The notes beneath the pieces were generated by a model. That model was not told the origin of the DNA. It ran no database searches and saw nothing but the letters and a program-made list of their open reading frames with translations. From a candidate division WWE3 bacterium (GTDB taxonomy: Bacteria > Patescibacteriota > WWE3 > 2-01-FULL-39-13): a stretch of DNA of 64,000 nucleotides. The stretch is from positions 46,460-110,459 of the forward strand of contig CALRDH010000001.1 in NCBI GenBank assembly GCA_943354835.1, read 5' to 3'. The position numbers and the translations under genes were made by a program. This document shows, piece by piece, positions 1,442 to 59,602 of this stretch; position 1 is the stretch's first letter; each line of letters begins with the position of its first letter.

Positions 1442-1527
1442 CTTTCATCCTGACGAACTAATAGACTTTGGGCGATATATATCAATGATATCACTACAAC
1501 GAATTATATACTGCATAATGCATTGTA

Positions 1528-2670: not shown

Positions 2671-2683
2671 TATAATTCACACT

Positions 2684-3877: not shown

Positions 3878-5268
3878 TAATTATCCGGCAAGTCATTTTC
3901 CAACAAAACGACTGGGTGATTTAAATTTAATTTTTTTACTTCCTGCCAAAGTAAATTTATTTTTTCAATATAAATCACTTTCTTTTTATTTTTAACGCCA
4001 GCTTCAATAGATATAGTTCTTTCGTTTCTGCCAACTAAAAAGATATAGTCACAAATTGAATCAGCAATTCCACCTAACTCAACGTGGGTTTCTTTTGTCT
4101 TATTTCCTAATTCAACAATCCCTGGAGTTACCAAAACTTTAGGTCTATTTTCAAATAAATTTAATGTATTTATTGCTTCTCTAAATCCAGTCGGATTACT
4201 GTTATATGCATCATCTATTATTGTTGCATCGTTTTCTTTGTTCTCACTTATTTCTAATCTATGCGCAACGGACTTCAACAAACCTATTTGCTCAACGATT
4301 TTTTCAGGCTTCACGCCAAGTAAAAATGACATGGTCGAAGCCGCAAGAATATTCGATAAATTACTATTCCCTATCAAATTAGTTTTAACCTTGTGTGCTT
4401 TTGAATCTAAAACCAAATCGAAATTGGTTACACCTTTAGACAAGGTAATATTTCTAACACTAAATTCAGAGTTTGAAAATCCATATGCGATAATTTTTCC
4501 CTGATATTTGATGTAGTTATCTTTTACAATCTCGTTATCAATATTTACGATCGAAAAACCATCTGACGGTACCGCTTCTACCAGCTCAAATTTTGCTTTT
4601 GTTGTATTTTCTATAGACCCAAACCTCTCCAAGTGTTGTTCATTGATGCCAGACAAAATTCCGAAATTTGGAGATGTCATTTCACAAAGTTCTTTTATCT
4701 CACCAATTGTATAAGCGCCCATCTCGCAAATGAAAAAATCATAATTGTCATCGAGTTCATAATCTACAACTTTAGAAATACCGAATAATGTATTGTAACT
4801 TTCAGGTGTTTTTAAAACTTTATATTGCGATTTCAAAATAAAATATAAAAATTCTTTAATGCTCGTTTTTCCATACGAACCAGTTACTCCAATTACTTTT
4901 AAATTTTTAAATGATTTAATTTTTTGTCTGGTTTTATTTTTCACCAAATACTTATTTAAAATTTCATATGGTTTAATGAGAACGATTGCCATAGATAAAT
5001 AAATGTAACTCTGTGTTGATAATAAAAACCCGAACAACAATCCATAATTGCCAAATATTTGATAAAAAATACCGGTTAAAACTAAGGCAGAGATAATGCT
5101 CACTCTTAAAATAAGCTTGGCTTTATTAGTCCAAACTAATTGTTTTTTTCCCTCTAAATCTCTTTTAAGAAAATTACTTAATATCCAAGTCCAAAATCTT
5201 GAAATCTCGTAACCTTCCAGTTGCAAAATGTTTAAATGAATTTTATATGGAAATATTTTTTCAATCAT
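3874..5268 (-). CDS. murF: UDP-MurNAc-tripeptide--D-alanyl-D-alanine ligase with an atypical hydrophobic N-terminus
   Basis: Mur ligase P-loop GVTGSYGKTS, then DFFICEMGA and DAYNSNP. It ends the mur cluster next to ddl. The first ~110 aa contain two predicted transmembrane helices in place of the usual MurF domain 1. Confidence 0.7.
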   Translation of the reverse strand: MIEKIFPYKIHLNILQLEGYEISRFWTWILSNFLKRDLEGKKQLVWTNKAKLILRVSIISALVLTGIFYQIFGNYGLLFGFLLSTQSYIYLSMAIVLIKPYEILNKYLVKNKTRQKIKSFKNLKVIGVTGSYGKTSIKEFLYFILKSQYKVLKTPESYNTLFGISKVVDYELDDNYDFFICEMGAYTIGEIKELCEMTSPNFGILSGINEQHLERFGSIENTTKAKFELVEAVPSDGFSIVNIDNEIVKDNYIKYQGKIIAYGFSNSEFSVRNITLSKGVTNFDLVLDSKAHKVKTNLIGNSNLSNILAASTMSFLLGVKPEKIVEQIGLLKSVAHRLEISENKENDATIIDDAYNSNPTGFREAINTLNLFENRPKVLVTPGIVELGNKTKETHVELGGIADSICDYIFLVGRNERTISIEAGVKNKKKVIYIEKINLLWQEVKKLNLNHPVVLLENDLPDNY

Positions 5269-5978
5269 AAATATTCATTCAAAATATCTAAAAATACTTT
5301 TGGTTTTTCGATATGTGGACTGTGATTTGCGCCCCAAACAATTCTTACAGTTGAATTTGGGATTTGCTTCTTGAAAACCTTTGTCTGACTTACATCTAAA
5401 ACGCTGTCTTTATCTCCCCATGTAATTATAGTTGGCGTTTTTATTTTATTAAAAAGAAATGTTAAGTCTTGATTAACAACTTTTACAAATGTTTCTTTTA
5501 ATTTACCGGATGATTTATAGTCTGCACTTCCTAGTTTCATTTTTATTTTTTCAGGAATAAATTTCTTAATTGGATTTAAGAGTGAATTAGCTAAACGAAC
5601 ATATAAAGATTTATTTTCAATTCCTGCACTGTCGACCAAAACAAGTTTATTTATACCTTTTATTTTACTAGCAAGAATTATTCCTAACCTTCCACCAAAT
5701 GAATGACCAATCAGTGAATATTTATTTATATCAAGTTTTTTTAAAAAGTTTTCGACAAAATCTGCATATTCATATGTATCATATGGTCTCTCTGGTAATT
5801 GTGTTCCACCAAATCCAGGAAGGTCCAATAAAATAACTCTATATCGAGTCGAAAGATTTTGCGCCACAGGAACCCATTCGTTTAAGGATCTACCCCATCC
5901 ATGAAGAATTATTAAAACATTATCTCCATGACCGAACTCTTCATAATTTGTAAGTATTCTATCTACTACAATCTGCAT
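5265..5978 (-). CDS. alpha/beta-fold hydrolase
   Basis: HGWG oxyanion motif and GHSFGG nucleophile elbow. Overlaps murF by 4 bp, so likely translationally coupled. Confidence 0.6.
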   Translation of the reverse strand: MQIVVDRILTNYEEFGHGDNVLIILHGWGRSLNEWVPVAQNLSTRYRVILLDLPGFGGTQLPERPYDTYEYADFVENFLKKLDINKYSLIGHSFGGRLGIILASKIKGINKLVLVDSAGIENKSLYVRLANSLLNPIKKFIPEKIKMKLGSADYKSSGKLKETFVKVVNQDLTFLFNKIKTPTIITWGDKDSVLDVSQTKVFKKQIPNSTVRIVWGANHSPHIEKPKVFLDILNEYL

Positions 5979-5987
5979 ATCTAAATT

Positions 5988-6404
5988 TCAACTATCTACT
6001 ACCTTCAACCATTTTATTTTTTTAAAGTCGCTATCGAATGTTGCGATTTTTTTGATACCTAACTTTTTACAATAGTATGCATGATATGCATCGAATGTTT
6101 TAAGATTGTATTTTTTGGCCAAGCCAAGGATATCAATCACGTCGGTTGAGACCAATTCTAAATCAATCAATGCTATCCGTTTCATTTTCAAAATATCTTT
6201 ACAAAGCCTGAGTGCGACCTCTTGACCATCTTTCCTTAAGAAAAAGTAGTGTAACTCATTTAGTATATACGGAGTAATAATCCCGATTTCATTTCTATTA
6301 CTGAATTCATGAACTAAATTACAAGCCTGTTCATAAAACTCGGCGTTACTTTTGAGCATGTTTATAAAGATATTTGAATCTACAAATATCCTGCTTTCAT
6401 TCAT
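5988..6404 (-). CDS. vapC: PIN-domain ribonuclease toxin (VapC-like)
   Basis: N-terminal IFVDSNIFI motif with an acidic residue, and PIN-domain size. Overlaps the upstream small antitoxin-like ORF by 8 bp. Confidence 0.65.
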   Translation of the reverse strand: MNESRIFVDSNIFINMLKSNAEFYEQACNLVHEFSNRNEIGIITPYILNELHYFFLRKDGQEVALRLCKDILKMKRIALIDLELVSTDVIDILGLAKKYNLKTFDAYHAYYCKKLGIKKIATFDSDFKKIKWLKVVDS

Positions 6405-6714
6405 AAATGCCCTCTAGAAATTCCTCAAGCTCTTCTATAGACATTGCTTTACCTTTAAATCCATATTTTTTTTGAAGATCGCGAAGTTCATTTCCCCAAG
6501 TGTCCTTTTCGGTCACAGCATTTTTTTCCTTTTTCACAAAAGTAATAGACTCCCCTTCATAAGAAACATTCAAAGTGTCTCCTATTTCGAAAGGAAATTC
6601 AGCAGGAATTGTTACAACTTTGCTGTTTCCGCTTTTATAAATAGTTAATGGTTCATCGTGGACATAAAAACCATTGGCGTCTTTTAAATTTTTCTTTTTA
6701 GGGTTTTTTGTCAT
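6397..6714 (-). CDS. vapB: AbrB/MazE-type (swapped-hairpin) antitoxin, VapB-like
   Basis: 105 aa with a KVVTIPAEF core. It lies immediately upstream of the PIN gene, overlapping it, and overlaps the murE stop by 4 bp. Confidence 0.5.
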   Translation of the reverse strand: MTKNPKKKNLKDANGFYVHDEPLTIYKSGNSKVVTIPAEFPFEIGDTLNVSYEGESITFVKKEKNAVTEKDTWGNELRDLQKKYGFKGKAMSIEELEEFLEGIYE

Positions 6715-8150
6715 GACAAAAGCTTATCATCGTCATTACGCATACTCAAGAAAAAACTTTCGGCTTCTTTTATATCAGACCAAGGATATTCTGTGCCACC
6801 GATGTTAATAGATTCCTCATGACCTTTTCCTAAAATCAAAACCCAGTCACCTTTTTGCGCCATGCCAATACCTTTAAATATTGCACTATGCCTATCAGGT
6901 TCAACAATGAAATTGTAATCAGGATTCCCAGAAACAATTTGCTTTATAATTTCGTTAACATCTTCAGAACGCGGATCTTCTGCGGTTAAAATTACGGTAT
7001 CCGAAAACTCCGATGCGGTCTTTCCCATGTTTGGCCTTTTATAAAAATCTCTTTCCCCTGCACATCCAAAAACAGTAATCAATTTTTCGTTTGGCTTTTT
7101 CATTTTCAAAACAGCAGACAAAACTTTTCGCATTGCATTTTCTGTATGAGCAAAATCAACAATTGCATTTATGCCTGCTGAATTTTTAATTCGTTGAAAA
7201 CGCCCCTTTGGAGGAGTCGCATTTGAAACAGCCTTAATCGCGATGTCATTATCAACTCCAAGCTTCTTTGAAATCTCTATTGCTAAAGATGCATTTTGTA
7301 AATTATATTCACCAGGAAAAATTTCGCTGAAGGAATCTGTAAGCGACGAAATAAATTTATCATCAGGATTGCTATAAACTATTTCTTTCTTTGCATACTT
7401 TGAAATTTCTGGAATTCCGGTTCCAACTTTATTCAAAACAATGTTTTCAGAAACATCAAAAAGCAAAGACTTATCTTTTATCAATTGTTCATAACTTCCA
7501 TGTGCATCTAAATGCTCTGGAGTAACATTTGTGACTCCACAAACATCAAAGCGAATTCCGAAAAATCTTTTTTGAACTAAAGCATGAGAAGTAACTTCCA
7601 AAACAACATACTCAACCCCAGCGTCAGCCATATCGGAAAGTAGTTTAAATAAAACATCAGGATCAGGCGAAGTTGTATGAAGCCCAGTTGAAACATCTGT
7701 GTCTCCATACTTTGCAGAAACAGTTGAGACTATGCCAACTTTTTTACCATCACTTTTTAGAATTTCATAAACGAAATTAGAAGTTGTTGTTTTTCCGTCA
7801 GTTCCAGTGATGCCTATAAACTTTAATTTATCTTGCGGATTATTATATTTTTGAGCTGAAAGAATCGCCCATTCTTCACGAGAACTATCGACTTTAATAA
7901 GGGTAGCCCCTTTCACGAAAGGGTAGCCCTCATCGTAAACTATGACGCTCGCGCCATTTTCAACTGCCTGATTTATATAATCATGGCCATCAACCTTGAC
8001 GCCTTTGTATGCAATAAACAAATCTCCTTTTTGAACCTTTCTTGAATCAGTTCTTATTTCGTTAACTTCATATGAATTTCCATTTATATCAATTTTCATT
8101 TTTAAGCTTTTCAAAAAAATCCTTAAACTTATCTCCACGGTCAAACTCAT
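6711..8150 (-). CDS. murE: UDP-MurNAc-L-Ala-D-Glu--2,6-diaminopimelate (or L-Lys) ligase
   Basis: Mur ligase P-loop IGITGTDGKTTT. The longest ORF overlaps murD by 62 bp, so the real start is probably the internal ATG at 8099 (MKIDING). Confidence 0.8.
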   Translation of the reverse strand: MSLTVEISLRIFLKSLKMKIDINGNSYEVNEIRTDSRKVQKGDLFIAYKGVKVDGHDYINQAVENGASVIVYDEGYPFVKGATLIKVDSSREEWAILSAQKYNNPQDKLKFIGITGTDGKTTTSNFVYEILKSDGKKVGIVSTVSAKYGDTDVSTGLHTTSPDPDVLFKLLSDMADAGVEYVVLEVTSHALVQKRFFGIRFDVCGVTNVTPEHLDAHGSYEQLIKDKSLLFDVSENIVLNKVGTGIPEISKYAKKEIVYSNPDDKFISSLTDSFSEIFPGEYNLQNASLAIEISKKLGVDNDIAIKAVSNATPPKGRFQRIKNSAGINAIVDFAHTENAMRKVLSAVLKMKKPNEKLITVFGCAGERDFYKRPNMGKTASEFSDTVILTAEDPRSEDVNEIIKQIVSGNPDYNFIVEPDRHSAIFKGIGMAQKGDWVLILGKGHEESINIGGTEYPWSDIKEAESFFLSMRNDDDKLLS

Positions 8151-9414
8151 TTAAAAACATTCCAAAACTTGCAGTTCCCGGAGAAAGCAAAACAATACCA
8201 TTTTTATTTTTTGCGATATTAAAAGCACAAGAAATAGCTACTTCAAAATTATCGTAAACCTTATTTGAATCAAGACCCAAACTAATATAAATATCAGTTG
8301 CCGTGCCTTTTAAAAGGACGTAATCGACTTTAGTTTCTAGTACATAATTAACCAAGCCAGAATAATCTAACTTTTTATCTGCTCCTCCTAAAATCACAAC
8401 TGGGTTTCTGTCTAAATAAGTTTTAATGCCAGAGATGGCGGCGACCGGAGCGGTCGCCGCTGTATCATTAACAAACAAAACACCTTTAATTTCACTAAGC
8501 TCTTCCCCCCTATAAGGAACTCCTTTAAAATTCAAAATCGCATCTTTAGTTTTTTGCAAATCTAAATTCAAAGCTTTTGAAATCTCAAAACATAACGCCA
8601 TATTTCTAACGTTATGCTCGCCTTTTAGAATTGAGCCAGAAAAATCATATCCTCCGCTTATCACATCAATCAAAATATTTTTTGATTTAGAAATCTGCAA
8701 ATAATCATTTGTAAACTCACCATCCTTAATAGTTACAAAAAAATCTTCAGATTTTTGATATTTAAATATTGAGGCCTTTGACATTGCATAATCTTTATAC
8801 GACGCATATCTATTCAAATGATCATGTGAAATATTTGTAATAACTCCAACATGTGGAGAAACTTGATTCTCATCTAAGCCTTCACAATCCCAGCTTGAAA
8901 CTTCCAAAACAACCCAATCATCTTCATTAACTTTTGAAACTAAATCCATTGCCGAATTTCCAGGAGTTCCAGCCTGGTAAACATTTAGACCTTGCGATCT
9001 AATAATTTCCGTTAATAAAGTTGATGTTGTAGTTTTTCCTTTTGTTCCAGTTACACCGATAACATTTTTTGTTTTGGAATACTTCAAAAAGAAACCTTCA
9101 GACATTTGAATTTCAATATTATGATCTTTTATGAACTTGAAAAGTGGAACCTCTCTTGGAATTGCAGGAGATCTAAAAACAATGTCTGCATTTAAAAAAT
9201 CAGATTCTTTGTGCTCACCTAAAACATATTCAATATTAGGAAGATCTTTAATCTCGTCTAAAGATTCTTTTAAATCGGATTCGGTTTTTAAATCTGTCAC
9301 TAAAATTTTTGCGCCATTTTGCGAAAAGAACTTAACTGCAGCTGGTCCATTTCCATGAGTTCCAAAACCCCAAATAACTATTTTTTTATCTTTAAATTCA
9401 GGAAAAATATTCAT
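8089..9414 (-). CDS. murD: UDP-MurNAc-L-alanine--D-glutamate ligase
   Basis: Rossmann-like N-terminus (KIVIWGFGTHG) and Mur ligase P-loop GVTGTKGKTTT. Position in the mur cluster. Confidence 0.8.
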   Translation of the reverse strand: MNIFPEFKDKKIVIWGFGTHGNGPAAVKFFSQNGAKILVTDLKTESDLKESLDEIKDLPNIEYVLGEHKESDFLNADIVFRSPAIPREVPLFKFIKDHNIEIQMSEGFFLKYSKTKNVIGVTGTKGKTTTSTLLTEIIRSQGLNVYQAGTPGNSAMDLVSKVNEDDWVVLEVSSWDCEGLDENQVSPHVGVITNISHDHLNRYASYKDYAMSKASIFKYQKSEDFFVTIKDGEFTNDYLQISKSKNILIDVISGGYDFSGSILKGEHNVRNMALCFEISKALNLDLQKTKDAILNFKGVPYRGEELSEIKGVLFVNDTAATAPVAAISGIKTYLDRNPVVILGGADKKLDYSGLVNYVLETKVDYVLLKGTATDIYISLGLDSNKVYDNFEVAISCAFNIAKNKNGIVLLSPGTASFGMFLNEFDRGDKFKDFFEKLKNEN

Positions 9415-9417
9415 AGA

Positions 9418-10767
9418 TCACAAAGCCTCCAATAAATTTTTTACAATTAAATCTCCATGACCGACAGCAAGAACCAAAACCAGATCTCCTTCGTTAGATT
9501 TCTCAACCGCTAATTTTACGGCATCGTCTAGTGAATTACACAAAACGGAACTAACAGTCCCAGACTTTGTTACATTAAAAAAATCTTCGTTCGAAATTGG
9601 ATATGGAAGATTTTCTCTAGATGCATAAATTGGACATTGAATTAAATCAACACCATTAAAAACTCCGCTGAATTCATTTAAAAGTTCCGCACATCTTTTG
9701 TATTGATGAGGTTCATATATAACGATCACATTTTTTCCTGTTGAAATTGCTGCATCAACAGTCACCTTAATTTCAGTTGGATGGTGACCGTAGTCATTTA
9801 CAACTGTAATTCCATTTTTAATTGAGGATTGAAACCGGCGGCCCGTCCCTTTAAATAAGTTTAATTTTAAGATTGCATCATTGATATCAAAACCCATAAT
9901 CATACAAACAACCAGGGCCGCCGTAGCATTGAATGCGTATTGCTTTCCCGGAAACGGAATTTTTGCATTATAAACATTTTCTCCGATATTAATTTTCCAT
10001 GACGACTCAAATCCATTTATCTCAATTCCACTTATCACTACATCATTTGATTTATCTTCTCCATATGTCATGAAATTTCCAGCAAAATTAGTTTTGATTT
10101 TCTCAACTGGAGTCTGATCTCCCCACATTAAAACATGACCACCCGACTTCACATTTGAAACAAATTTACAAAAAGAATTAATGTACGAATCATAATCTTT
10201 GAAATAATCATGATGATCCATTTCCAATGATGTAATAACAGCGATTTTTGGTTCAAGGCCTAAAAATGCATCAGCAAATTCATCAGCCTCAATCACGAAA
10301 TTTTTTGACATTCCATTTCTCCCGTTTGTTTCAAAATTGATTGAAGTTCCACCAATTCCAAATCCGCATTTATCACCTAAAGAATCTAGCAAAAAAGAAG
10401 TTAATGAAGTTGTTGTCGTTTTTCCATGTGTTCCAGAAATCGCAATAACATCTTTATCATTTAATAATATTGGCAAAAATTCATTTCTCTCATAACTTTT
10501 AACTCCAACATTTATGGCTTCATCAAGTTCCTTTTTATTTTCCTCGTTATATTTAATTGCAGAAGTGTATAAAAACGCATCCAAATTGGATTTAATATGA
10601 GAAGGTGAATTTCCTAAATCAAGATCTTTAAGGCCTAATTCAAATAATTCTTTAACTCGTTCATTTTCATCTAAGTTACAACCAGAAACATCCCAACCCT
10701 TTTCAAGCAAAATTTTTGCAATCCACGACCAACCTTCTCCTCCAATTCCTGCAATATGAACTTTCAT
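9418..10767 (-). CDS. murC: UDP-N-acetylmuramate--L-alanine ligase
   Basis: N-terminal HIAGIGGEGWS (the MurC GIGG motif) and Mur ligase P-loop GTHGKTTTTS. Confidence 0.8.
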   Translation of the reverse strand: MKVHIAGIGGEGWSWIAKILLEKGWDVSGCNLDENERVKELFELGLKDLDLGNSPSHIKSNLDAFLYTSAIKYNEENKKELDEAINVGVKSYERNEFLPILLNDKDVIAISGTHGKTTTTSLTSFLLDSLGDKCGFGIGGTSINFETNGRNGMSKNFVIEADEFADAFLGLEPKIAVITSLEMDHHDYFKDYDSYINSFCKFVSNVKSGGHVLMWGDQTPVEKIKTNFAGNFMTYGEDKSNDVVISGIEINGFESSWKINIGENVYNAKIPFPGKQYAFNATAALVVCMIMGFDINDAILKLNLFKGTGRRFQSSIKNGITVVNDYGHHPTEIKVTVDAAISTGKNVIVIYEPHQYKRCAELLNEFSGVFNGVDLIQCPIYASRENLPYPISNEDFFNVTKSGTVSSVLCNSLDDAVKLAVEKSNEGDLVLVLAVGHGDLIVKNLLEAL

Positions 10768-11750
10768 ATAACAACAACCTCTCTTTCTATGTCTATATCA
10801 AATATCGATTTCACTTTATCTTGAATTAATTTCGAAAATTCAAAAACTTCAAGACCTGTTGCACCGCCAAAATTAATTAAGACCAAAGCTTGTTTTTCAT
10901 AAACCCCGCAATTGCCATACCTCTGTCCCTTAAAACCAGCTTTTTCTATAAGCCAACCTGTTGGAATTTTATACTTCTCATTTTCTTCTAGAAAAAACGG
11001 GACATCAGGATAATTTTTTTGTAAGATTTCAAACTTATCTTTTGAAATTATTGCGTTTTTGAAAAAAGAACCTGCAGTACCAAATTTAATAGTATCTGGA
11101 AGTTTTTCGCTTCGAATTTTTATAACGGCATTTCTTACATCAAGTATCGTCGGATTATTATTTTTTATGAGATCAAAATAGTCCTTCAAAGCTTTATACG
11201 ATAAATTAATAATTGGCTTTTTAGATAATTTATACAAAACAGAAACCACGACGTATTGATTCTTTAATTCATTTTTAAAAACGCTATCTCTGTATCCAAA
11301 TTTACATTCATCCAAATTGAAGAATCTAGTTTCACCTGTATTGATATTAATTGCTTCAAGTGATTCAAAAGAACTTTTAATTTCAGATCCATAAGCGCCA
11401 ATATTTTGAATAGGAGTTGCACCAACAAGGCCAGGAATTCCCGACAAATTTTCAAATCCACCATAACCTTTTTCAACACTATACGAAACTAGATCATCCC
11501 AAATTTCACCAGCATATGCCTTTACATAGACATTATTTTCATCTTCTTTTTCTACGTTAATTCCTTTTAATGAAATTTTAATTACAAGTCCATTAAAATC
11601 TTGTGTAAACAAAACATTACTTCCGCCTCCAAGAATAAATTTGTCTACGTTTTGATATAAAGGATTCTTTAAAATATTAATAAGCTCTGAAAGTGTATCT
11701 GCGTCTTCAAAATACAATGAATTGGCCTTTACGCCAAATGTGTTATACAT
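10764..11750 (-). CDS. murB: UDP-N-acetylenolpyruvoylglucosamine reductase
   Basis: FAD-binding GGGSNVLF motif. Size and position between murC and murA. Confidence 0.8.
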   Translation of the reverse strand: MYNTFGVKANSLYFEDADTLSELINILKNPLYQNVDKFILGGGSNVLFTQDFNGLVIKISLKGINVEKEDENNVYVKAYAGEIWDDLVSYSVEKGYGGFENLSGIPGLVGATPIQNIGAYGSEIKSSFESLEAININTGETRFFNLDECKFGYRDSVFKNELKNQYVVVSVLYKLSKKPIINLSYKALKDYFDLIKNNNPTILDVRNAVIKIRSEKLPDTIKFGTAGSFFKNAIISKDKFEILQKNYPDVPFFLEENEKYKIPTGWLIEKAGFKGQRYGNCGVYEKQALVLINFGGATGLEVFEFSKLIQDKVKSIFDIDIEREVVVI

Positions 11751-11759
11751 ACAAAAATT

Positions 11760-13070
11760 TCACAACAAAGTTATATCAGCACCAAGGCTCTTATATGTTT
11801 CGAAAATATCTGGGTATCGTCTTTTTAAAATATCAACACCGTGAATTGTTGTTTCGACGGGATCACAAAGGCTTGCCAAAAAGATTGCCTTACAAGCCTG
11901 AATTACACCAGGTGAAACAAGTTCTCCACCTTTAAAATTTATTGGCCCACGAATTATAACTCTTTGAGGATCTAAAACTAAAATATCAGCGCCTAACGCA
12001 TTAAGCTCACGTGCAAAATCAAGTCCTGTTTCATACATCCAATTTGAAAGCAGAAGTTGACCACGAACTTTACACGCCAAAGTTGCCATAACTGGAATTA
12101 CATCAACCGGAAAACCTGGCCACGGTCTTGGATAAAGCTTAGGCAAATTATTTCCAGCAAGTGGAAAACCTGATGCTTCAACATCAATTTTTAACTCTCC
12201 ATTATTCTTTACAATCAAATCTTCACCACTTTGAGTAATACTAATATTAAATTTCTCAAACCACTGAATAATTCCACCTATAAAATCAGGTTTATTTGCA
12301 CCTTTTATTGTGATTTCTCCATTTGTTATAGCTGTTGCCACAATATATCCTGCTATATCGACAAAATCAGGCTCCGGTGTAAAACTTGCGCCTTTTAATT
12401 TTCTACTGCCATCAATAATCAGTTTGTTAGAACCAATGCCAGAAACATCTGCGCCCATATCAGAAAGAAGTCTTAACAATTGTGAAACATGAGGTTCGCA
12501 AGCGGCATCGACAATTTCATATTTATTTTCCATACCACTTGCATACATTGCAAGATTTTCCGTAGCTGTAACACTTGCTTCTGTTTGCCAAATAAAATAA
12601 TCTTTTTTGTCATTTTTTGGAGCAGTGAATCTTACAAAACCATCACAGTATTCAATCTTTACCCCAGCTTTTTGAAAAGCATCAACGTGAGCAGAAATCG
12701 ATCTTGCGCCAAGTACGCATCCACCAGGAACAGGAATTTCAGCTAAACCAAAGCGTGAAAGGAGCGGTCCTGCGAACATAATTGAGGCTCTAATTTTCTC
12801 ACCCAAAACTTTATCGACTTTGTAAGTATTTATTTTTGAACAGTTTATTTTCAGGTTATCGTAATTGCTATCATCAACGCTTGCTCCTAAAAGCTTCATC
12901 ATTTCTAAAAGCTTTTCTACATCGGTTGATTTTGGAACATTGTGATAGATAACGGTTTCATCTGTCAAAATTGCTGCGGGAATTGCTGCAACAATAGCAT
13001 TTTTATTTGGTATTAGATTTACGGAACCCTTTAGAGGTTTGCCACCTCGGATTTTTACAGTGCCATTCAT
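11760..13070 (-). CDS. murA: UDP-N-acetylglucosamine 1-carboxyvinyltransferase
   Basis: N-terminus MNGTVKIRGGKPLKGSV is typical of MurA. Length 436 aa. Confidence 0.85.
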   Translation of the reverse strand: MNGTVKIRGGKPLKGSVNLIPNKNAIVAAIPAAILTDETVIYHNVPKSTDVEKLLEMMKLLGASVDDSNYDNLKINCSKINTYKVDKVLGEKIRASIMFAGPLLSRFGLAEIPVPGGCVLGARSISAHVDAFQKAGVKIEYCDGFVRFTAPKNDKKDYFIWQTEASVTATENLAMYASGMENKYEIVDAACEPHVSQLLRLLSDMGADVSGIGSNKLIIDGSRKLKGASFTPEPDFVDIAGYIVATAITNGEITIKGANKPDFIGGIIQWFEKFNISITQSGEDLIVKNNGELKIDVEASGFPLAGNNLPKLYPRPWPGFPVDVIPVMATLACKVRGQLLLSNWMYETGLDFARELNALGADILVLDPQRVIIRGPINFKGGELVSPGVIQACKAIFLASLCDPVETTIHGVDILKRRYPDIFETYKSLGADITLL

Positions 13071-22283: not shown

Positions 22284-23291
22284 TTATAAATATTTCGTAA
22301 CATTTTGGTTATGTTTTTCTAAAGTTTCTGCGTACCTTGTAACACCATTGCTACCTGTTATATAAAACCAATATGGCGTTTCCACATATTTAACAACAGC
22401 TTCAATTGAATTTAAGCTAGGATTGCAAATTGGCGCTGGCGGTAAACCTTTTTGCAAATACGTATTGTAGGGGGAATCTACTTTTCTCAAGTCTTCACGT
22501 GTAACTTTTGGCCACCAATTTCCACTAAAACCTTTTGCATATTGAACCGTTGCATCGGCTTGGATTGCCCAATTACTTTTCCATCTTTTAATTAAAATTC
22601 CGGCAACCATTGGCCTTTCTGAATGTATATTCATCTCTCTTTCTAAAATCGATGCAATAATAATAACTTCATCTTTTGAAAGACCTCGAAGTTCGGCCTT
22701 TGCAAAAAGTTCTTCGGAAACCTTTTTATCAAATGTATTTCTCATCCACGAAGCAAGGTTTCCCGGATCATAACTTTGATCAACAATATAAGTATCAGGA
22801 AACATATAGCCTTCTTTTACATAATTACTTTTTGAAAATTTATCGGCAAATTCAAATCCCATTTGTTTTTCTAGATAATCTTTATATTCTTCAGTTCGCC
22901 AACCTTCTATGAATGTAAGTTTTCTTTCAAAAGAACCTTTCTGAAAAACTTCAATAAGCTTTACTAATGTTAAATCTTTCGAATCAACTTCATAATACCC
23001 AGCCTGAAGTTCCATTTTTGGATTTAAATACATATATGCTTTTAACATAAGCGGATATTTTATTAATTTTTGATTTTTAAGATATTCACCAACTTTGCTT
23101 ACACCCATACCTTTTTCTATAACCAACTTAATTTTCCCAGAAGATGCAGTATTTATTGGCGCATTAATTTCATTCAAATAATATGCATAAACCAAAACTG
23201 CAGATATAATACAAACAAGAAAAAATCCGCAAAATGCGATAGTCAACTTACTTGAAAGTGTTCTTTTGGGCTTTTCGTCTATTAATTCCAT
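22284..23291 (-). CDS. mltG: endolytic murein transglycosylase (YceG-like)
   Basis: N-terminal transmembrane helix plus YceG-like domain (GYMFPDTY, WPKVTREDL, SPYNTY motifs). Confidence 0.75.
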   Translation of the reverse strand: MELIDEKPKRTLSSKLTIAFCGFFLVCIISAVLVYAYYLNEINAPINTASSGKIKLVIEKGMGVSKVGEYLKNQKLIKYPLMLKAYMYLNPKMELQAGYYEVDSKDLTLVKLIEVFQKGSFERKLTFIEGWRTEEYKDYLEKQMGFEFADKFSKSNYVKEGYMFPDTYIVDQSYDPGNLASWMRNTFDKKVSEELFAKAELRGLSKDEVIIIASILEREMNIHSERPMVAGILIKRWKSNWAIQADATVQYAKGFSGNWWPKVTREDLRKVDSPYNTYLQKGLPPAPICNPSLNSIEAVVKYVETPYWFYITGSNGVTRYAETLEKHNQNVTKYL

Positions 23292-52531: not shown

Positions 52532-52789
52532 ATGAAGCGCACACAAATTTACCTAAAAGATACACAATATAGAAAACTAAAGGAATACTCCGATGCTAAA
52601 TCTGTAAGCCTTTCTGAAAGTGTTCGAGAGATGGTTGATGTTGGCTATGAAGTTACAACAAAAACTAAACAAATAAAAGTAAAAAAATTCGGTGTCGGAG
52701 ATCTCCTTTTAAATAGCAGAAATAGTATTGCCTTTAATGGCCCAAAAGATTTATCCCAAAATATTGATAAATTCGTATATGAAATCTGA
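52532..52789 (+). CDS. ribbon-helix-helix antitoxin (CopG/VapB-like)
   Basis: 85 aa. RTQIYLKDTQYRKLKEYSDAKSVSLSESVREMV fits an RHH N-terminus. Followed by a PIN gene. Confidence 0.45.
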   Translation: MKRTQIYLKDTQYRKLKEYSDAKSVSLSESVREMVDVGYEVTTKTKQIKVKKFGVGDLLLNSRNSIAFNGPKDLSQNIDKFVYEI

Positions 52790-53198
52790 TAATGAAATTT
52801 TCATAGATGCTAGCTTTTTTTGCGCATTTTATAACGAAAATGACGCATTATTTAAAAAAGCCTCATCATACATTGAACTTTTAAACACAAAAAAAATATT
52901 CACATCGAACTTTATCCTGCTTGAAAGTTACACTGTTATCTCACAACGTGTGTCAAAAAAAGCAGCAATTGAATTTGGCAAGACAATTCAAAACATGCCA
53001 GAAATTAAAATAATAAAAGTTGACCAAGATCTAGAAAAATCATCCTGGGGCATTTTTGAAATAATATCCGACAAAAACATGTCCTATGTTGATTGCTCAA
53101 CAATTGCATTAATGCAAGAATACTCAATTAAGCAACTTCTTACTTTCGATTCACACTTCAAAAAACATACAAAACAATTTGGATACAAAATTGTATAA
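52779..53198 (+). CDS. vapC: PIN-domain toxin (VapC-like)
   Basis: EIFIDASFFCAFYNEND N-terminal PIN motif. Start chosen at MKSDNE to limit the overlap; the ORF track starts at 52728. Confidence 0.6.
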   Translation: MKSDNEIFIDASFFCAFYNENDALFKKASSYIELLNTKKIFTSNFILLESYTVISQRVSKKAAIEFGKTIQNMPEIKIIKVDQDLEKSSWGIFEIISDKNMSYVDCSTIALMQEYSIKQLLTFDSHFKKHTKQFGYKIV

Positions 53199-53206
53199 TA
53201 TCTAGA

Positions 53207-54754
53207 ATGTCTTCTTTATATTCCAAAATTAAAATTGCTCTTGATTCAAAAAAAATAATATATAAGGAATTAAGACACGAAGCTGTTTTCACAAGCGAGG
53301 AAGCCGCAAAAATTCGAGGCACGAGTCCCGAAGAAGGCGCAAAGGCACTAATTTTTCAGGCAAAAAGATCTGGCCAAAACGAAAAGATTTTTATACAACT
53401 CGTAATTCAAGGAAATAAGCGCGTAGACAAAGAAAAATTTAAAGCACGCTTTGGATTCGAAACTTTAAAAATGGTTTCCGGTGACGAAGTTGAAAAAATA
53501 TCTGGAGTAAAACCAGGCGCTGTTGCACCATTTGGAAATTTATTTGAACCCGCAATTCAAGTTTTTGTCGAAGCAGGAATTATAAGAACTTCGGAAATAG
53601 AATTTAACGCAGGAGATCACAAAATAAGCATAAGAATGAATACTGGCGATTGGGTTAAAATTGTAAAACCAACCCTTGGAAAATTCGCTGAAAAAGAGGT
53701 TCAAGAAAAACGAAAAAATACAGAAGAAGTGAAATTGCTTCCTGCTCCAGAAGTTCATACAGAAGAAACTCATGCGAAAAAGCAGACAGAGCAACCCGAA
53801 TCAAAACATAAGTTCAAAAGAAACAAAATTGTAGCTCATAAATACGTCTATTCATTTTTGGTAGGAACTCTAATGGTTGCCTCTTTTACAGCAGGGAATT
53901 TATTAAAACCAGAAAAACAGGTTCCAGTGCAAATCGTATCCAATCAAGATTTACCTGAAGTTTTAGGTATAGCAGATGCATCGACCAATGTTGATTCTGA
54001 AACGCCAAAAATCGAAGTAGCTCCACCAGAGGTTTCTGCAAAAGCATACGGAATCTTTGACATGAAAAAAGACACGTCAATTTATACAAAAAATCCTGAT
54101 CTTCCACTTCCTCCAGCGTCTGTTACAAAAGTTATGACTGCAATTGTTGCAATGGATCAAGACGATCTCGAAAAACCGGTTCAAATCCCAGAGAATTGTA
54201 CAAAAATTAATGCAAGTAAAGTTGGATTTGTGGCAAACGAAGTTTTGACACTTGAAGATGTTTTATATGGACTTTTAGTCAGATCAGGAGCCGATGCCGC
54301 ATGTGCTTTGGCAAATTTATACAACGAAACGGATTTCATAGATAAAATGAACCAAAAAGCAAATGAGATTGGAATGGAAAAAACGATTTTTGAAAATCCA
54401 ATAGGCCTTGATTCAGACAAGTTTCAGTTTTCAACTGTTAATGATTTAGAAAAGCTAACGAAATACAGTCTTAAATACGGCGTTTTTAGAAAAATCGTCG
54501 GCACTAAAGAAATAACTTTGAGATCTCTAACCAATCCAAATAGAACTTACAAAATAAAAAATACGAATGATCTTCTTTTCACAATTCCTGGAACTGTTGG
54601 CGTAAAAACAGGTTTTACAACAGGCGCAAGAGAATGCTTAATCTACTTATATGAAGATAATGACAACCAATTTCTAATCGTTGTTTTAGGTTCTGAAGAC
54701 AGATTCGGCGATACTACAAAACTTATCAATTGGACAAAGGAAAACCTTCAATAA
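53207..54754 (+). CDS. fusion of a YbaK/ProX-like aminoacyl-tRNA deacylase domain, a transmembrane helix, and a D-alanyl-D-alanine carboxypeptidase (peptidase S11, PBP5-like)
   Basis: The N-terminal ~170 aa match the YbaK pattern (SEEAAKIRG...GAKALIF...KPGAVAPFGN). Transmembrane helix VYSFLVGTLMVASFTAG. The C-terminal half has SVTK (SxxK), SGAD (SxN-like) and KTGFTTGA (KTG). Confidence 0.55.
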   Translation: MSSLYSKIKIALDSKKIIYKELRHEAVFTSEEAAKIRGTSPEEGAKALIFQAKRSGQNEKIFIQLVIQGNKRVDKEKFKARFGFETLKMVSGDEVEKISGVKPGAVAPFGNLFEPAIQVFVEAGIIRTSEIEFNAGDHKISIRMNTGDWVKIVKPTLGKFAEKEVQEKRKNTEEVKLLPAPEVHTEETHAKKQTEQPESKHKFKRNKIVAHKYVYSFLVGTLMVASFTAGNLLKPEKQVPVQIVSNQDLPEVLGIADASTNVDSETPKIEVAPPEVSAKAYGIFDMKKDTSIYTKNPDLPLPPASVTKVMTAIVAMDQDDLEKPVQIPENCTKINASKVGFVANEVLTLEDVLYGLLVRSGADAACALANLYNETDFIDKMNQKANEIGMEKTIFENPIGLDSDKFQFSTVNDLEKLTKYSLKYGVFRKIVGTKEITLRSLTNPNRTYKIKNTNDLLFTIPGTVGVKTGFTTGARECLIYLYEDNDNQFLIVVLGSEDRFGDTTKLINWTKENLQ

Positions 54755-55142
54755 ATCTTTTAATAATTTGACAGGCAGCTATTGAGTCATCTACTTTTCT
54801 ACGCTTCATAGAAACACCAGAAGCCACTGCAATCTCTGACGACTCGTTTGTCGTTCCGAACTCATCGACATAAACTAACTTTATATTTTCTGGCAGCTTG
54901 CTCTTTAAGAAGTCTCCGAAAGCTTTGACTTTTTCTGATGATTTAGTTGGAACGCCGTTAATATATGGAAGACCTATTACTACAATTTCAATTCTTTCGT
55001 CGTTTATTATTTTTAGTATCGAATTTTGTATATCGGATTGAAAAATCCCAAAAGGAGAAACGATATCATTTACGCCAAGAGCTACACCAACATTCTTTTC
55101 ACCATAATCGATTCCGAGTATCCGCATATTACTTTTTATCAA
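54726..55142 (-). CDS. ruvX: putative pre-16S rRNA nuclease / Holliday-junction-resolvase-like YqgF
   Basis: MRILGIDYGEKNVGVALG N-terminus and RNase H-like fold size (138 aa). Confidence 0.8.
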   Translation of the reverse strand: MIKSNMRILGIDYGEKNVGVALGVNDIVSPFGIFQSDIQNSILKIINDERIEIVVIGLPYINGVPTKSSEKVKAFGDFLKSKLPENIKLVYVDEFGTTNESSEIAVASGVSMKRRKVDDSIAACQIIKRFIEGFPLSN

Positions 55143-56622
55143 TTACTATTTCGATGTTTTTGGAAAGATGAGGCATAGTTTGTATAATCGCAGGCATTTT
55201 TGGACTTAGTGTAATCTCAAATCCCTTAATACTCGAAATAGAATTTAAATAACTTTGTGCTTGATCTAATTTCATACCAGTCATGTCTGATATTATTTTC
55301 TTTTCATCAAGGTTTGGCGTTATATAACTTCGAAGTTTGATTTGAAGGTCAACAATGCCTGTTCCTGCTTTTGCTTTTGTGGCAGCAACTTCATATTCAG
55401 GCTTGCCTCCATCTAAACTATATTCTGAAGGCACAACTGTTTTAACAAGTTCGGATACAATTTCATCAAGATTTTTTTGATCATAAACAATTCCGACACC
55501 CTTTGTTGTCATTTCCAAAGTTAACTCATCTCCTTCTTCGGCAAGTTTTTTATCAAAAGTTCCTGATACAGTTGTAAATTCAATTGAAGATTCAGGTAAC
55601 GTTTGACCTGTTACAACTTTCTTTTTTATCGCTTCTATGACTTTCGTTTTCATAAATTCATCAAGAGTTCTTTTTAGCCCATCTAAATCGGCTTGTGCGA
55701 CAACATTTGCTTCTTTCAGTGTTCCACCTTCAAGATTTTCTTTATTTTCACCAACCAATTTTTCTGTGTTGTAATTATCAACTTCAAATTTTTCTTCTTT
55801 ATCTTGATTATATTTATCACCATACGAAACGGCAGTAATACTTACCTCTTTACTACCGTATTCTGTAGTAGAACCGCCAGTTCCTGTTGGTGTCTTTATT
55901 TGTGCAGGAATATCAATGTTTTCTTGAATTTCATACTTTAAACTTTCGTTATCTGTTGAAATAAGTTTTATAACCTTACCCTTTTTAAGCGTTATAACTT
56001 CGTCTGTCTTGTTAAAAAGCGTAACTTTTCCTTTGGCACTATCTCCAATTTCCTTTTTTCCAGTTGTCGGAATAGTCTGGGAATCAGAAACCGTAACATC
56101 AACATTAATTGCTGGAATAGTTGAATCAGCTACAGAAACAGAAGTCGCAGTTGGACTTGCCTTGATATCTAGAATTTTAACTAATATTTGAGAATCAATA
56201 GAAACAGTAACCTTTGCAGACGGCAAATACCACCACAATGCAAATCCACCACCAAAAAATATTAATAAAAAGGCAGCAACATATATCAAAACTTTTGCAC
56301 CTTTAATATTAAGTTTAAATTCTCTTCTTTCTTTTTTAGGTTTTTGATCCATATTTAAATCTACCGATTCGTCTGGTGTTTGCATAAAATCTCCGTTTAC
56401 GGCATCAATATAGTCTTTGTGTGATTTATTTTCAACATCGAAAGTAACTGTTTTATTTTTTTCGTTAGCTAATTTTTGGAGAATTTTTAAATTTAAAGAT
56501 TTTAAATATAACGTTGATTTCTTCTTGAAAAGGATTTTGACATCAGATTCTACTGCATCGTCAATTGCAATAATCAAATCATTAATTTCTGTAGTTTCAT
56601 CGGCCGTAATATTATAATTCAT
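55129..56622 (-). CDS. membrane-anchored hypothetical protein, possibly cell-division-associated
   Basis: Cytoplasmic N-terminus, a single transmembrane helix (VLIYVAAFLLIFFGGGFALWWYL) and a ~350-aa external domain. Directly downstream of the ftsA-like gene. Confidence 0.35.
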   Translation of the reverse strand: MNYNITADETTEINDLIIAIDDAVESDVKILFKKKSTLYLKSLNLKILQKLANEKNKTVTFDVENKSHKDYIDAVNGDFMQTPDESVDLNMDQKPKKERREFKLNIKGAKVLIYVAAFLLIFFGGGFALWWYLPSAKVTVSIDSQILVKILDIKASPTATSVSVADSTIPAINVDVTVSDSQTIPTTGKKEIGDSAKGKVTLFNKTDEVITLKKGKVIKLISTDNESLKYEIQENIDIPAQIKTPTGTGGSTTEYGSKEVSITAVSYGDKYNQDKEEKFEVDNYNTEKLVGENKENLEGGTLKEANVVAQADLDGLKRTLDEFMKTKVIEAIKKKVVTGQTLPESSIEFTTVSGTFDKKLAEEGDELTLEMTTKGVGIVYDQKNLDEIVSELVKTVVPSEYSLDGGKPEYEVAATKAKAGTGIVDLQIKLRSYITPNLDEKKIISDMTGMKLDQAQSYLNSISSIKGFEITLSPKMPAIIQTMPHLSKNIEIVIDKK

Positions 56623-57790: not shown

Positions 57791-59602
57791 TTAGCACAAA
57801 GCCTTAATACGTCTAACACCCTTGGAAACGGCTTCTTCCTTAATGATTTTAAAGCTTCCAAGCTCTGAAGTGTTCGTGACGTGAGGGCCTCCGCAAAACT
57901 CTTTAGACCACGCATTTTCAATAGAATCGCCAATAAAATATATGCTGACCTCATCGCCATACTTATCACCAAAAAAATGCAAAGCGCCAGTTTTTTCGGC
58001 ATCTGCCTTTAACATAACAACCTTATTTACAGGCAATGCTTCCTTAATTTTTTGATTAACAATTTCTTCGACCTTTTTAACTTCATCATCTGTCATTTTT
58101 GTATCGTTGGAAAAATCAAATCTTAAACGTTCTGAAGTAATATTACTTCCCATTTGGTGAACAAGGTCCCCTAAAACTTCTCGCAAAGCTTGATGTAAAA
58201 GATGAGTAGCTGTATGAAGCTTTGTTGTTTCGATTGAATGATCACCAAGGCCGCCTTTGAATCGTTGCGACATATTTGATCTTGATTTATCTTGATGAGA
58301 AGCAACATCACTATCAAAATTACTAAAATCAATACTGATGCCTTGCTCTATAGCGAGATTCTCAATCAAATCTCTAGAAGCACCCTGGGATTGATAAATA
58401 TCAAAAGGATTAATAATATCTTTCACACCTTTTTTTACATAATTCTTGATAATAAATGATCTAGTTCGATCAGTTGCTAATTTATATTGATCAATTTCTG
58501 TCTTAAAAACACCTGTAATAAAATCTAGCTTATCGATTTCTGGATATCTTTCTTTATTTATTTCTATAACAGTTGGAATGATTTCAATAATTTTTGAACT
58601 ATCAATATCAAGTTTCCAAACGCATTCATCAAAAACTCTTCTGATTAACCTTCTTAAAACATAACCTTGATCTTTGTTAGAAGGATACAATCCTTCAATT
58701 ATTAAAAAAGTAGAAGCTCTAATATGATCCGCCACCCGCTGTACTGATTTTTTCGTTTCGCCTGAACTTTTCTCACCAACCAAAGATACAATCTTTTCAA
58801 TAATCGGCCTAAAAAGATCTGTTTCATAATTACTATCCACATTCTGTAATAAGACTGATAAACGTTCGAGTCCGCTACCGGTATCGACACTCATTTTTGC
58901 AAGTGGAACTAATTCCCCGGCTTCATTGCGATTAAATTGCATGAATACACCAGCATTCCATATTTCTAAATAACGAGGATTATCAGTAAGGCCAGGAACA
59001 CTTTCCTCTGGACCAAAATCTTCGCCTCTATCATAAATGACTTCAGTACATGGACCACATGGACCAACCGGCCCAGGTGCCCACCAGTTTTCGGAAGCAG
59101 GAAGCTTTGGGATTCTATTTTCAGGAATACCTACAGATTTCCAAGCCTCTATAGTTTCTGAATCTTCTGGCGCATCCTCATTCCCAGCAAACACAGTTGG
59201 GTAAAAACGGCTTGGATCTAGGCCAAAACCATAATCCTTATTTGTCAAAAGTTCAAAAGAAAATCTAACAGCCTCTTTCTTACCATAATCACCAATTGAC
59301 CAATTCCCCAACATCTCAAAATACGTATGGTGATACTTACTGATTCCGACAATATCCAAATCTCCAGTCCTTATACATTTTTGTGCAGAACATAATCTTT
59401 TTGATCCAAAATCGGAAACAGGATTTTTCTCTCCGAGAAAATAAGGTGTAAATTGGACCATTCCAGAATTAGTAAAAAGTAGAGTTGGATGATTTTCTGG
59501 AATTAAAGAACTAGATGGAACTTCGACATGCTCCATGTTTTCGCGGGCTAAAATTTTAACAAAATATTCTAAAAACCTTTTGCGGATTTCTGTTGATGTC
59601 AT
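57791..59602 (-). CDS. alaS: alanine--tRNA ligase, short form lacking the C-Ala domain
   Basis: N-terminal VPSSSLIPENHPTLLFTNSGMVQF class II AlaRS core and the editing-domain HTATHLLHQAL motif. 603 aa. Confidence 0.8.
   Translation of the reverse strand: MTSTEIRKRFLEYFVKILARENMEHVEVPSSSLIPENHPTLLFTNSGMVQFTPYFLGEKNPVSDFGSKRLCSAQKCIRTGDLDIVGISKYHHTYFEMLGNWSIGDYGKKEAVRFSFELLTNKDYGFGLDPSRFYPTVFAGNEDAPEDSETIEAWKSVGIPENRIPKLPASENWWAPGPVGPCGPCTEVIYDRGEDFGPEESVPGLTDNPRYLEIWNAGVFMQFNRNEAGELVPLAKMSVDTGSGLERLSVLLQNVDSNYETDLFRPIIEKIVSLVGEKSSGETKKSVQRVADHIRASTFLIIEGLYPSNKDQGYVLRRLIRRVFDECVWKLDIDSSKIIEIIPTVIEINKERYPEIDKLDFITGVFKTEIDQYKLATDRTRSFIIKNYVKKGVKDIINPFDIYQSQGASRDLIENLAIEQGISIDFSNFDSDVASHQDKSRSNMSQRFKGGLGDHSIETTKLHTATHLLHQALREVLGDLVHQMGSNITSERLRFDFSNDTKMTDDEVKKVEEIVNQKIKEALPVNKVVMLKADAEKTGALHFFGDKYGDEVSIYFIGDSIENAWSKEFCGGPHVTNTSELGSFKIIKEEAVSKGVRRIKALC

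Follow-up and report, generated by a model that had tools for sequence, protein, structure and literature searches.

A 64,000-nt stretch of DNA from a candidate division WWE3 bacterium (GTDB lineage Bacteria; Patescibacteriota; WWE3; 2-01-FULL-39-13; GenBank assembly GCA_943354835.1, contig CALRDH010000001.1, positions 46,460 to 110,459 of the forward strand; hereafter the window) carries an open reading frame (ORF) in which an aminoacyl-tRNA editing domain of the INS/YbaK superfamily is fused to a Peptidase S11 domain of the low-molecular-weight penicillin-binding protein (PBP) type. The ORF spans positions 53207..54754 on the plus strand and runs uninterrupted from ATG to stop over 515 amino acids. 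The fusion is genuine and is kept by purifying selection on both domains, and it is confined to one subclade within candidate division WWE3 (Patescibacteria). Its probable explanation is a merger of two neighboring genes that left both ancestral activities in place. Each domain belongs to a known family, and their combination is apparently undescribed. A preliminary description of the gene, made from the sequence alone, had already stated that no described family with this pairing was known to its author; in agreement with it, full-text literature searches turned up no report of YbaK combined with a DD-carboxypeptidase, and a 2024 review describes the trans-editing proteins of the INS superfamily as single-domain, except for ProRS-linked and plant ProXp-ala forms (PMC11295145).

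The same architecture, which the preliminary description had proposed to look for in other genomes, recurs in public data. A homologue search covering 5.8 billion proteins, evaluated as clusters at 90% identity with both Pfam domains at full-length coverage, revealed nine further clusters with PF04073 and PF00768, ranging from 92% down to 49% identity to the window protein. These clusters come from NCBI, JGI, ENA and Logan assemblies, those with a named source are labeled candidate division WWE3, and the fused proteins are deposited publicly as "hypothetical protein". In an alignment of the 10 sequences both domains are well conserved; the linker, the transmembrane (TM) helix and the stalk differ in sequence and length, and the frame is always kept. 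In the comparison of the window gene with the fused gene of locus L012, the editing domain has a dN/dS of 0.069 and the S11 domain one of 0.048, at a dS of ∼1.1–1.6; values are quoted for this pair only, as dS is saturated at deeper divergences and the ratios become unreliable. Linker identity drops to 22–34% with the frame intact.

It had been reasoned beforehand that homologues always encoded as two genes would point to an assembly join. Many homologues, including those of close relatives, are indeed two genes. Moreover, protein P0130 (156 aa, from a short 1.3-kb JGI contig) has the clear look of a chimera and probably is one, since its first 102 residues are those of the editing domain of P0004 and are followed by unrelated sequence, so that artefactual joins of the editing gene do exist in public data. 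However, ten independent fused sequences, 49–92% identical and obtained by different projects and assemblers, are all in frame despite their different linker lengths. Together with the low dN/dS, these diverged in-frame sequences exclude an assembly join or missed frameshift, and we regard a chimeric or frameshifted origin of the window ORF as extremely improbable.

Layout of the fused protein and origin of its junction

The fused ORF and its parts are listed below with their positions in the window.

53207..54754, plus strand: whole fused ORF, 515 aa plus stop (ORF list; full-length homologues P0001–P0009 at 92–49% identity)
53207..53701, plus strand: editing domain of the INS/YbaK superfamily, residues 1–165, predicted cytoplasmic, 3op6-like (Pfam, PDB matches, pLDDT, dN/dS)
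53276–53659, plus strand: Pfam tRNA_edit match, residues 24–151 (E=1.2e-19)
53342..53344, plus strand: codon of K46, the family-invariant Lys, invariant in fused and free-standing proteins
53504..53539, plus strand: Gly/Pro loop G100-V-K-P-G104-A-V-A-P108-F-G-N111, with G100, G104, P108, F109, G110 and N111 invariant
53678..53842, plus strand: fusion junction and K/E-rich disordered linker, residues 158–212, predicted cytoplasmic (junction DNA comparison, pLDDT)
53843..53905, plus strand: single predicted TM signal-anchor, residues ∼213–233, N-in (hydropathy, K/R bias, AlphaFold2 helix)
53906..54007, plus strand: disordered stalk, residues 234–267, predicted extracytoplasmic, poorly conserved (pLDDT <50 at 226–261)
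54008..54751, plus strand: Peptidase S11/low-molecular-weight PBP catalytic domain, residues 268–515 (Pfam, 3mfd, K15 1skf)
54119..54130, plus strand: S305-V-T-K308 (SxxK motif with nucleophile Ser and Lys), invariant and aligned with the SxxK of DacB and K15
54284..54292, plus strand: S360-G-A362 at the SxN position, invariant among fused proteins
54605..54613, plus strand: K467-T-G469 (KTG motif), invariant among fused proteins
Junction-spanning stretch of the window protein: LGKFAEKEVQEK

Pfam searches bear out the two domains named in the preliminary description. The YbaK-like N-terminal domain matches tRNA_edit (PF04073) with 71.1 bits against a cutoff of 25.5 and covers 122 of 123 profile positions, and the C-terminal part matches Peptidase_S11 (PF00768) over residues 271–496 (143.7 bits, cutoff 27.6, E=8.7e-42), with its SVTK, SGA and KTG motifs invariant in 10 of 10 fused homologues. 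AlphaFold2, run on a 108-sequence alignment, models two globular domains with pLDDT >90 (residues 1–165 and 270–515) and a lone helix at 214–228 between the disordered segments 181–215 and 226–261, both with pLDDT <50. This helix lies in the sole hydrophobic segment of the protein, residues ∼213–233, so that the single TM helix postulated after the N-terminal domain is recovered, though as a weak one (maximum KD19 of 1.39); the homologous anchor at the same place is usually more hydrophobic, with a KD19 of at least 1.6 in 32 of 39 relatives. Six K/R residues lie within 15 residues on the N-terminal side of the segment and two on the C-terminal side. The K/R bias and the modeled helix agree with the suggested topology of a deacylase-like domain inside and a peptidase outside, and the fused product is predicted to be a bitopic membrane protein with N-in/C-out orientation.

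With the editing domain alone as query, free-standing proteins of ∼155 aa with 45–59% identity were found, several of which share contigs with S11-only matches. Apart from the fused clusters, none of the S11 relatives from the same protein search carries an editing domain. The split pairs of sister WWE3 and other Patescibacteria are orthologous to the two halves of the window protein: a free editing protein is followed by an N-terminally anchored S11 protein of ∼310–440 aa that is ∼55–64% identical to the fused S11 domain, and synteny, TM anchor and K/E-rich tail are common to both arrangements. The difference is that two overlapping ORFs in different frames stand in place of the one ORF of the window. 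For example, a WWE3 genome with the synteny of the window encodes the two domains as separate genes with an 11-nt overlap in the order RecJ, small ORF, PIN, aminoacyl-tRNA synthetase, editing protein and S11 protein, followed on the opposite strand by RuvX, a 500-aa protein, FtsA/PilM, AlaRS and SMC.

Separate editing and S11 genes were found in loci L001–L003, L005 and L010. In addition, a survey of 80 loci that encode the editing domain in GTDB species representatives revealed a separate downstream S11 gene in 17 loci, with S11 identity down to ∼30%, and a fusion to S11 in only one (L012, WWE3). Several of the closest loci (within L013–L053) carry third-party titles of metagenome-assembled genomes, such as "Saccharibacteria", "Gammaproteobacteria", "Pseudomonadales" or "Methanosarcinales", that look unreliable despite typical Patescibacteria synteny and were not used for taxonomy. 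In most split loci the S11 gene lies directly downstream of the editing gene (0.85–1.4 kb away in L022 and L036), and in ten of them the two genes overlap by 1–23 nt in different frames, including an 11-nt overlap in L005 and a 17-nt overlap in L010, where the flanking genes have changed.

Comparison of the junctions at the DNA level indicates how the two genes were joined. In the split pairs the editing gene ends with ...G-D-Y-x-x-stop, and the ATG of the S11 gene lies within those codons (ggagattATGa), with a GGAG in the Gly-Asp codons upstream of it, a classic arrangement for translational coupling. The fused proteins read GDYEMAEKK in L006, where the old ATG is retained in frame, GRFAEKEKEE in L008, and GKFAEKEV in the window and L012, where the junction ATG and the GGAG are both gone. 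Stand-alone S11 proteins start with MEKEHK or MKDKKK, and the K/E-rich cytoplasmic tail of these relatives comprises 7–108 residues. Because the fused junctions match an editing C-terminus of the form G-[DK]-[YF] that runs into an S11 tail, the fusion is an end-to-end join at the former overlap, in which the peptidase has retained its own K/E tail, signal anchor and stalk.

Within the fast-evolving linker, a K-[ML]-L-P-A-P island is conserved (K-L-L-P-A-P at residues 176–181 of the window protein, positions 53732–53749). The codon of its Met is ATG in P0001–P0007; the window has TTG at this position and GTG two codons upstream. The island could be a relic of an internal start or a live one, or a short linear motif.

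Identity and partners of the two domains

Among proteins of solved structure, the editing domain matches 3op6, an "uncharacterized protein" of Legionella, with E=1.6e-13 as a single sequence and 1e-23 as a profile. The family profile scores 87 bits against 3op6 and less against the INS domain of ProRS (5znj, 49 bits), APE2540 (1wdv, 38 bits), ProXp-x (2cx5, 38 bits), YbaK (1dbu, 38 bits) and ProXp-ala (5vxb, 26 bits). By these scores the domain comes closest neither to characterized ProXp-ala (5vxb/1vjf) nor to ProXp-x, and YbaK proper is likewise rejected (TIGR00011, Cys-tRNA(Pro) deacylase, YbaK_EbsC; 43.4 bits, cutoff 153.25); a single JGI record names a relative "Ala-tRNA(Pro) deacylase", which is an automatic name. 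The domain thus appears to represent a distinct, uncharacterized 3op6-like subfamily of the INS superfamily, with 3op6 as its only solved member. A Foldseek search with the full model gave only S11 matches, and none for the N-terminal domain, among the 50 matches listed.

Fold, Pfam family, the conserved Lys and a Gly-rich loop are shared with YbaK and the ProRS INS domain, although the subfamily is distinct. In alignments, K46 corresponds to K46 of YbaK from Haemophilus influenzae (1dbu) and to residue 279 of ProRS 5znj (the INS Lys), and the loop of the form G-x-x-x-G-x-x-P-x-G corresponds to G-x-x-x-G-G-x-S-P-x-G in 1dbu. Moreover, the fused proteins show no variation in any of the columns that are invariant among 27 free-standing relatives. 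Known INS trans-editing proteins act on tRNA(Pro) or on Ser-, Thr- or Abu-charged tRNAs (PMC11295145). ProXp-7 contains Trypanosoma brucei MCP3. Literature searches on 3OP6, on trans-editing in the candidate phyla radiation, on ProXp-7/8/9 and on AspRS-YbaK fusions found nothing relevant. Some relatives carry the editing domain in tandem, with three copies in P0153 (491 aa) and P0159 (448 aa) and two in P0227 (303 aa).

An exhaustive hidden Markov model search of 1.84 billion representatives (50% identity) found 6,542 members of the subfamily at E≤1e-3. Pfam analysis of 149 of the 150 best subfamily representatives showed the core of class IIb synthetases (tRNA-synt_2) to be the dominant partner (12 of 149), followed by Peptidase_S11 (2) and by RuvX, GmrSD_N and a Myb-like domain (1 each). 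P0155 and the synthetase neighbor in L001 score above the curated cutoff for aspartate–tRNA(Asn) ligase, and P0158, P0265 and P0291 above that for bacterial aspartate–tRNA ligase, P0158 also with a GAD insertion. By these profile matches the fused synthetase is an aspartyl-tRNA synthetase (AspRS), and the editing domain is found at the C-terminus of both the archaeal-type non-discriminating and the bacterial GAD-containing AspRS (P0155, P0158, P0185, P0265, P0291).

In line with this, 11 of the 80 surveyed loci were flagged by script as carrying a fusion of the editing domain to the upstream AspRS, and S11 follows in 8 of these 11. ORF lists and Pfam confirmed two of the cases, L048 (RecJ, then an AspRS-editing fusion of 608 aa at 2651–4477, then S11 of 320 aa) and L024 (an AspRS-editing fusion of 603 aa at 413–2224, then S11 of 312 aa). 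The gene string AspRS, editing domain, S11 is thus recurrent in Patescibacteria. The AspRS fusions, built of tRNA_anti-codon, tRNA-synt_2, in some cases GAD, and tRNA_edit (P0155, P0158, L024, L048), contain the same editing subfamily as the window protein and often belong to that gene string, with S11 as the next gene, but there the domain is soluble and attached to the C-terminus of its probable partner, whereas in the window it forms the N-terminus of a membrane protein. A third combination, a 298-aa fusion of tRNA_edit and RuvX, is present on six contigs, including one of 120 kb (L092, 5001–5897; also L093, 796–1692). An inversion of the S11/RuvX segment, compared with the window, has here brought RuvX next to the editing gene, and S11 is separate on the minus strand (5894–6859). 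The fusions to AspRS, S11 and RuvX all track adjacency, indicating that the editing domain is either free or merged with an abutting gene.

Fusions and conserved adjacency together point to an uncharacterized branch of the YbaK/INS superfamily that is evolutionarily tied to AspRS. The reviews consulted mention no AspRS proofreading factor or AspRS-linked editing domain. This tie of a widespread branch is more consequential than the fusion itself and may be of greater interest to the aminoacyl-tRNA synthetase field; we know of no editing partner of AspRS.

The S11 domain had been labeled "PBP5-type", which does not hold in the strict sense. Its best solved relatives are the catalytic domain of Bacillus subtilis DacB (PBP5*, 3mfd, E=2e-33) and the Streptomyces K15 DD-transpeptidase (1skf, TM-score 0.87), with which it shares SxxK and KTG, followed by PBP7-like endopeptidases and mycobacterial DacB1/Rv2911. 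Both of these closest enzymes lack an N-terminal cytoplasmic domain; DacB carries an additional C-terminal domain, and K15 is a single-domain enzyme of 262 residues. Escherichia coli PBP5/DacA, an S11 enzyme that likewise has SxxK and KTG, is a distant match (E∼1e-9), and its C-terminal beta-sandwich, C-terminal amphipathic anchor and SGN motif all have no counterpart in the window protein, which ends with the catalytic domain, has its anchor at the N-terminal side of that domain and gave no Pfam match to the PBP5 C-terminal domain (PF07943). None of the NCBIfam and PRK equivalog models reached its cutoff (DacA, 43 bits against 694; DacD, 68 against 610; PRK10001, 70 against 765), not even the best NCBIfam match, PBP7/PbpG-type DD-endopeptidase NF008668 (109 against 294).

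KTG is present in 114 of 120 S11 relatives. The SGA of the window protein departs from the canonical SxN motif, which varies among these relatives as well: 38 have SGAD, 29 SAND, 20 SGND and 33 other forms, with A at the third position in 38, N in 49 and G, S, T or others in 33. SGA instead of SxN is a feature of the whole Patescibacteria S11 clade and independent of the fusion. K15 also has no Asn at the third position, and its best-scoring entry, the C98A mutant 1es3, has an identical SGA at the same place. This K15-like variation in the Patescibacteria S11 group raises the question of which reaction is catalyzed.

Function of the fused product

A gene merger that left both activities in place most likely proceeded as follows. 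The upstream ancestor was probably a free-standing aminoacyl-tRNA trans-editing protein and the downstream ancestor an N-terminally anchored single-domain S11 DD-peptidase, and a small frame-changing mutation of 1–2 nt probably merged these translationally coupled, overlapping neighbors. Both domains are intact and under strong purifying selection, with their catalytic motifs preserved. In the cytoplasm, the editing domain would hydrolyze mischarged aminoacyl-tRNA, most likely the product of AspRS, while held at the membrane by a flexible tether of ∼50 residues; outside, the peptidase would act on D-Ala-D-Ala stem peptides by trimming or cross-linking them, so that each domain would keep its ancestral job in its own compartment. 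Coupling across the membrane would not be needed, as a cytoplasmic domain can be added to an N-in signal anchor with export left undisturbed. As a merger of overlapping neighbors, the fusion does not look like a new signaling device, and the persistence of the gene pair would be expected, since genes that overlap can easily merge but are difficult to part by rearrangement.

Several observations weigh against this explanation. In neighbor-joining trees of the S11 domain the fused proteins form one clade, but the split pair P0011/L005 nests inside it, and the corresponding tree of the editing domain separates L006 from the other fused forms; the trees fit either a single origin with a reversal or two origins. 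With Ala in place of the SxN Asn, the reaction of the S11 domain could be that of a carboxypeptidase, a transpeptidase or an endopeptidase. The TM helix of the window protein is only weakly hydrophobic and has a low pLDDT. Finally, the editing-S11 pairing persists where the flanking synteny has changed, as in L010, and where S11 identity has dropped to ∼30%, which might point to a functional link instead of the inertia of an overlap.

Such a link would connect a membrane-tethered editing domain to cell-wall or D-amino-acid metabolism. The domain could clear D-aminoacyl-tRNA or other mischarged tRNA formed as D-Ala/D-Asp pools rise, control the quality of aminoacyl-tRNAs consumed at the membrane, or act as a sensor of charged tRNA that relays a signal to the external DD-peptidase. 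In Firmicutes, Fem/MurM enzymes build peptidoglycan bridges from aminoacyl-tRNAs, and D-Asp can be charged by AspRS; both count for coupling, as do the presence of alanine racemase (Alr) and Ddl in the window, the purifying selection on the fusion over dS >1, and the adjacency of the two genes, often with start/stop overlap, in two clades of the editing domain despite differing neighbors. Nevertheless, we consider coupling unlikely. Whether the domain is fused to RuvX or to AspRS depends on adjacency alone, AspRS being the dominant partner, and the conserved block of RecJ, AspRS, editing domain, S11, RuvX, FtsA, AlaRS and SMC mixes unrelated housekeeping functions. No Fem-type tRNA-dependent ligase was found among the 26 window ORFs scanned, and the two domains are predicted to be separated by the membrane and ∼90 disordered residues, with no predicted contact. 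A more specific scenario, which we hold to be quite unlikely, would make the 3op6-like domain a dedicated AspRS proofreading module, whose attachment to S11 would place the clearance of aberrant (e.g., D- or non-cognate) aminoacyl-tRNA(Asp/Asn) at the membrane at the time of D-amino-acid release or uptake in peptidoglycan remodeling; if true, this would be a direct physical link from translation quality control to cell-wall turnover.

The fusion might also exist at the level of the ORF only, with internal initiation or proteolysis of the long, disordered linker giving rise to separate editing and S11 proteins. The in-frame ATG of L006 with its upstream GGAG and the island conserved in P0001–P0007, where the window offers GTG and TTG, might serve as start sites. 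However, the junction ATG and GGAG are lost in the window and L012, P0008 and P0009 are without the Met of the island, and the frame is kept across many linker indels. A scan between the domains revealed no promoter-like sites above chance and no terminator on the coding strand, and we judge separate products to be rather unlikely. The preliminary description had suggested that the YbaK fold may have been repurposed as a cytoplasmic regulatory domain, for example one that binds an amino-acid or nucleotide ligand; on this reading it would have lost tRNA editing and would regulate the carboxypeptidase. The architecture is unusual and the subfamily biochemically uncharacterized, in keeping with such a change, but the proposal is unsupported because the domain still has its catalytic Lys and Gly-Pro loop, and we rate it as very unlikely. 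Catalytic-type and invariant residues are identical to those of free-standing and AspRS-fused relatives, the dN/dS of ∼0.07 is as low as that of the peptidase, the main partner of the domain is AspRS and not the cell wall, and no second, free editing paralog that could take over was found in the window.

Seen as a merger of neighbors, the fusion is a clean example of how overlapping, coupled genes turn into multi-domain proteins in streamlined genomes. It also cautions against reading "Rosetta-stone" fusions as functional links, since adjacency alone decides whether the domain is joined to AspRS, S11 or RuvX. Moreover, the predicted product would be a natural membrane-tethered tRNA-editing enzyme, which raises the question of whether trans-editing tolerates, or even benefits from, membrane localization.

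Gene neighborhood in the window

The genes that flank the fused ORF are as follows.

52532..53198, plus strand: toxin-antitoxin-like pair of overlapping ORFs, RHH (85 aa) and PIN (156 aa), between RecJ and the fused gene (Pfam RHH_3, PIN)
54726..55142, minus strand: RuvX/YqgF, converging on the fused ORF, with a 29-nt overlap at the 3′ end of the latter (Pfam RuvX, E=1e-21)

The slot of the RHH/PIN pair is filled by AspRS, together with a small ORF and PIN, in L001 and is empty in L008; no AspRS-type gene was found in the window. The RuvX neighbor belongs to the synteny block and is conserved in L001–L009. It is followed on the minus strand by a predicted membrane protein of 497 aa (55129–56622) with no significant Pfam match (weak GlxA beta-barrel, E=6e-4). 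In every WWE3 relative examined, a homologue of 500–525 aa occupies the corresponding place between RuvX and the FtsA/PilM-like gene. Further along this strand, AlaRS (57791–59602) comprises only 603 aa with the catalytic core and the tRNA_SAD editing motif, a short form shared by relatives (605–631 aa); since its match ends by residue 599, it appears to be without the usual C-terminal extension.

A cluster for peptidoglycan precursors at positions 326–13070 encodes an MraY-type GT4 protein, alanine racemase, Ddl, four Mur ligases, MurB and MurA, followed by SecDF, and a YceG/MltG gene is located at 22284–23291. The presence of Alr, Ddl, Mur ligases, MurA and MurB indicates that the organism makes the D-Ala-D-Ala stem-peptide substrate itself. 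Embedded among the Mur ligases is a gene for an alpha/beta hydrolase (5265–5978).

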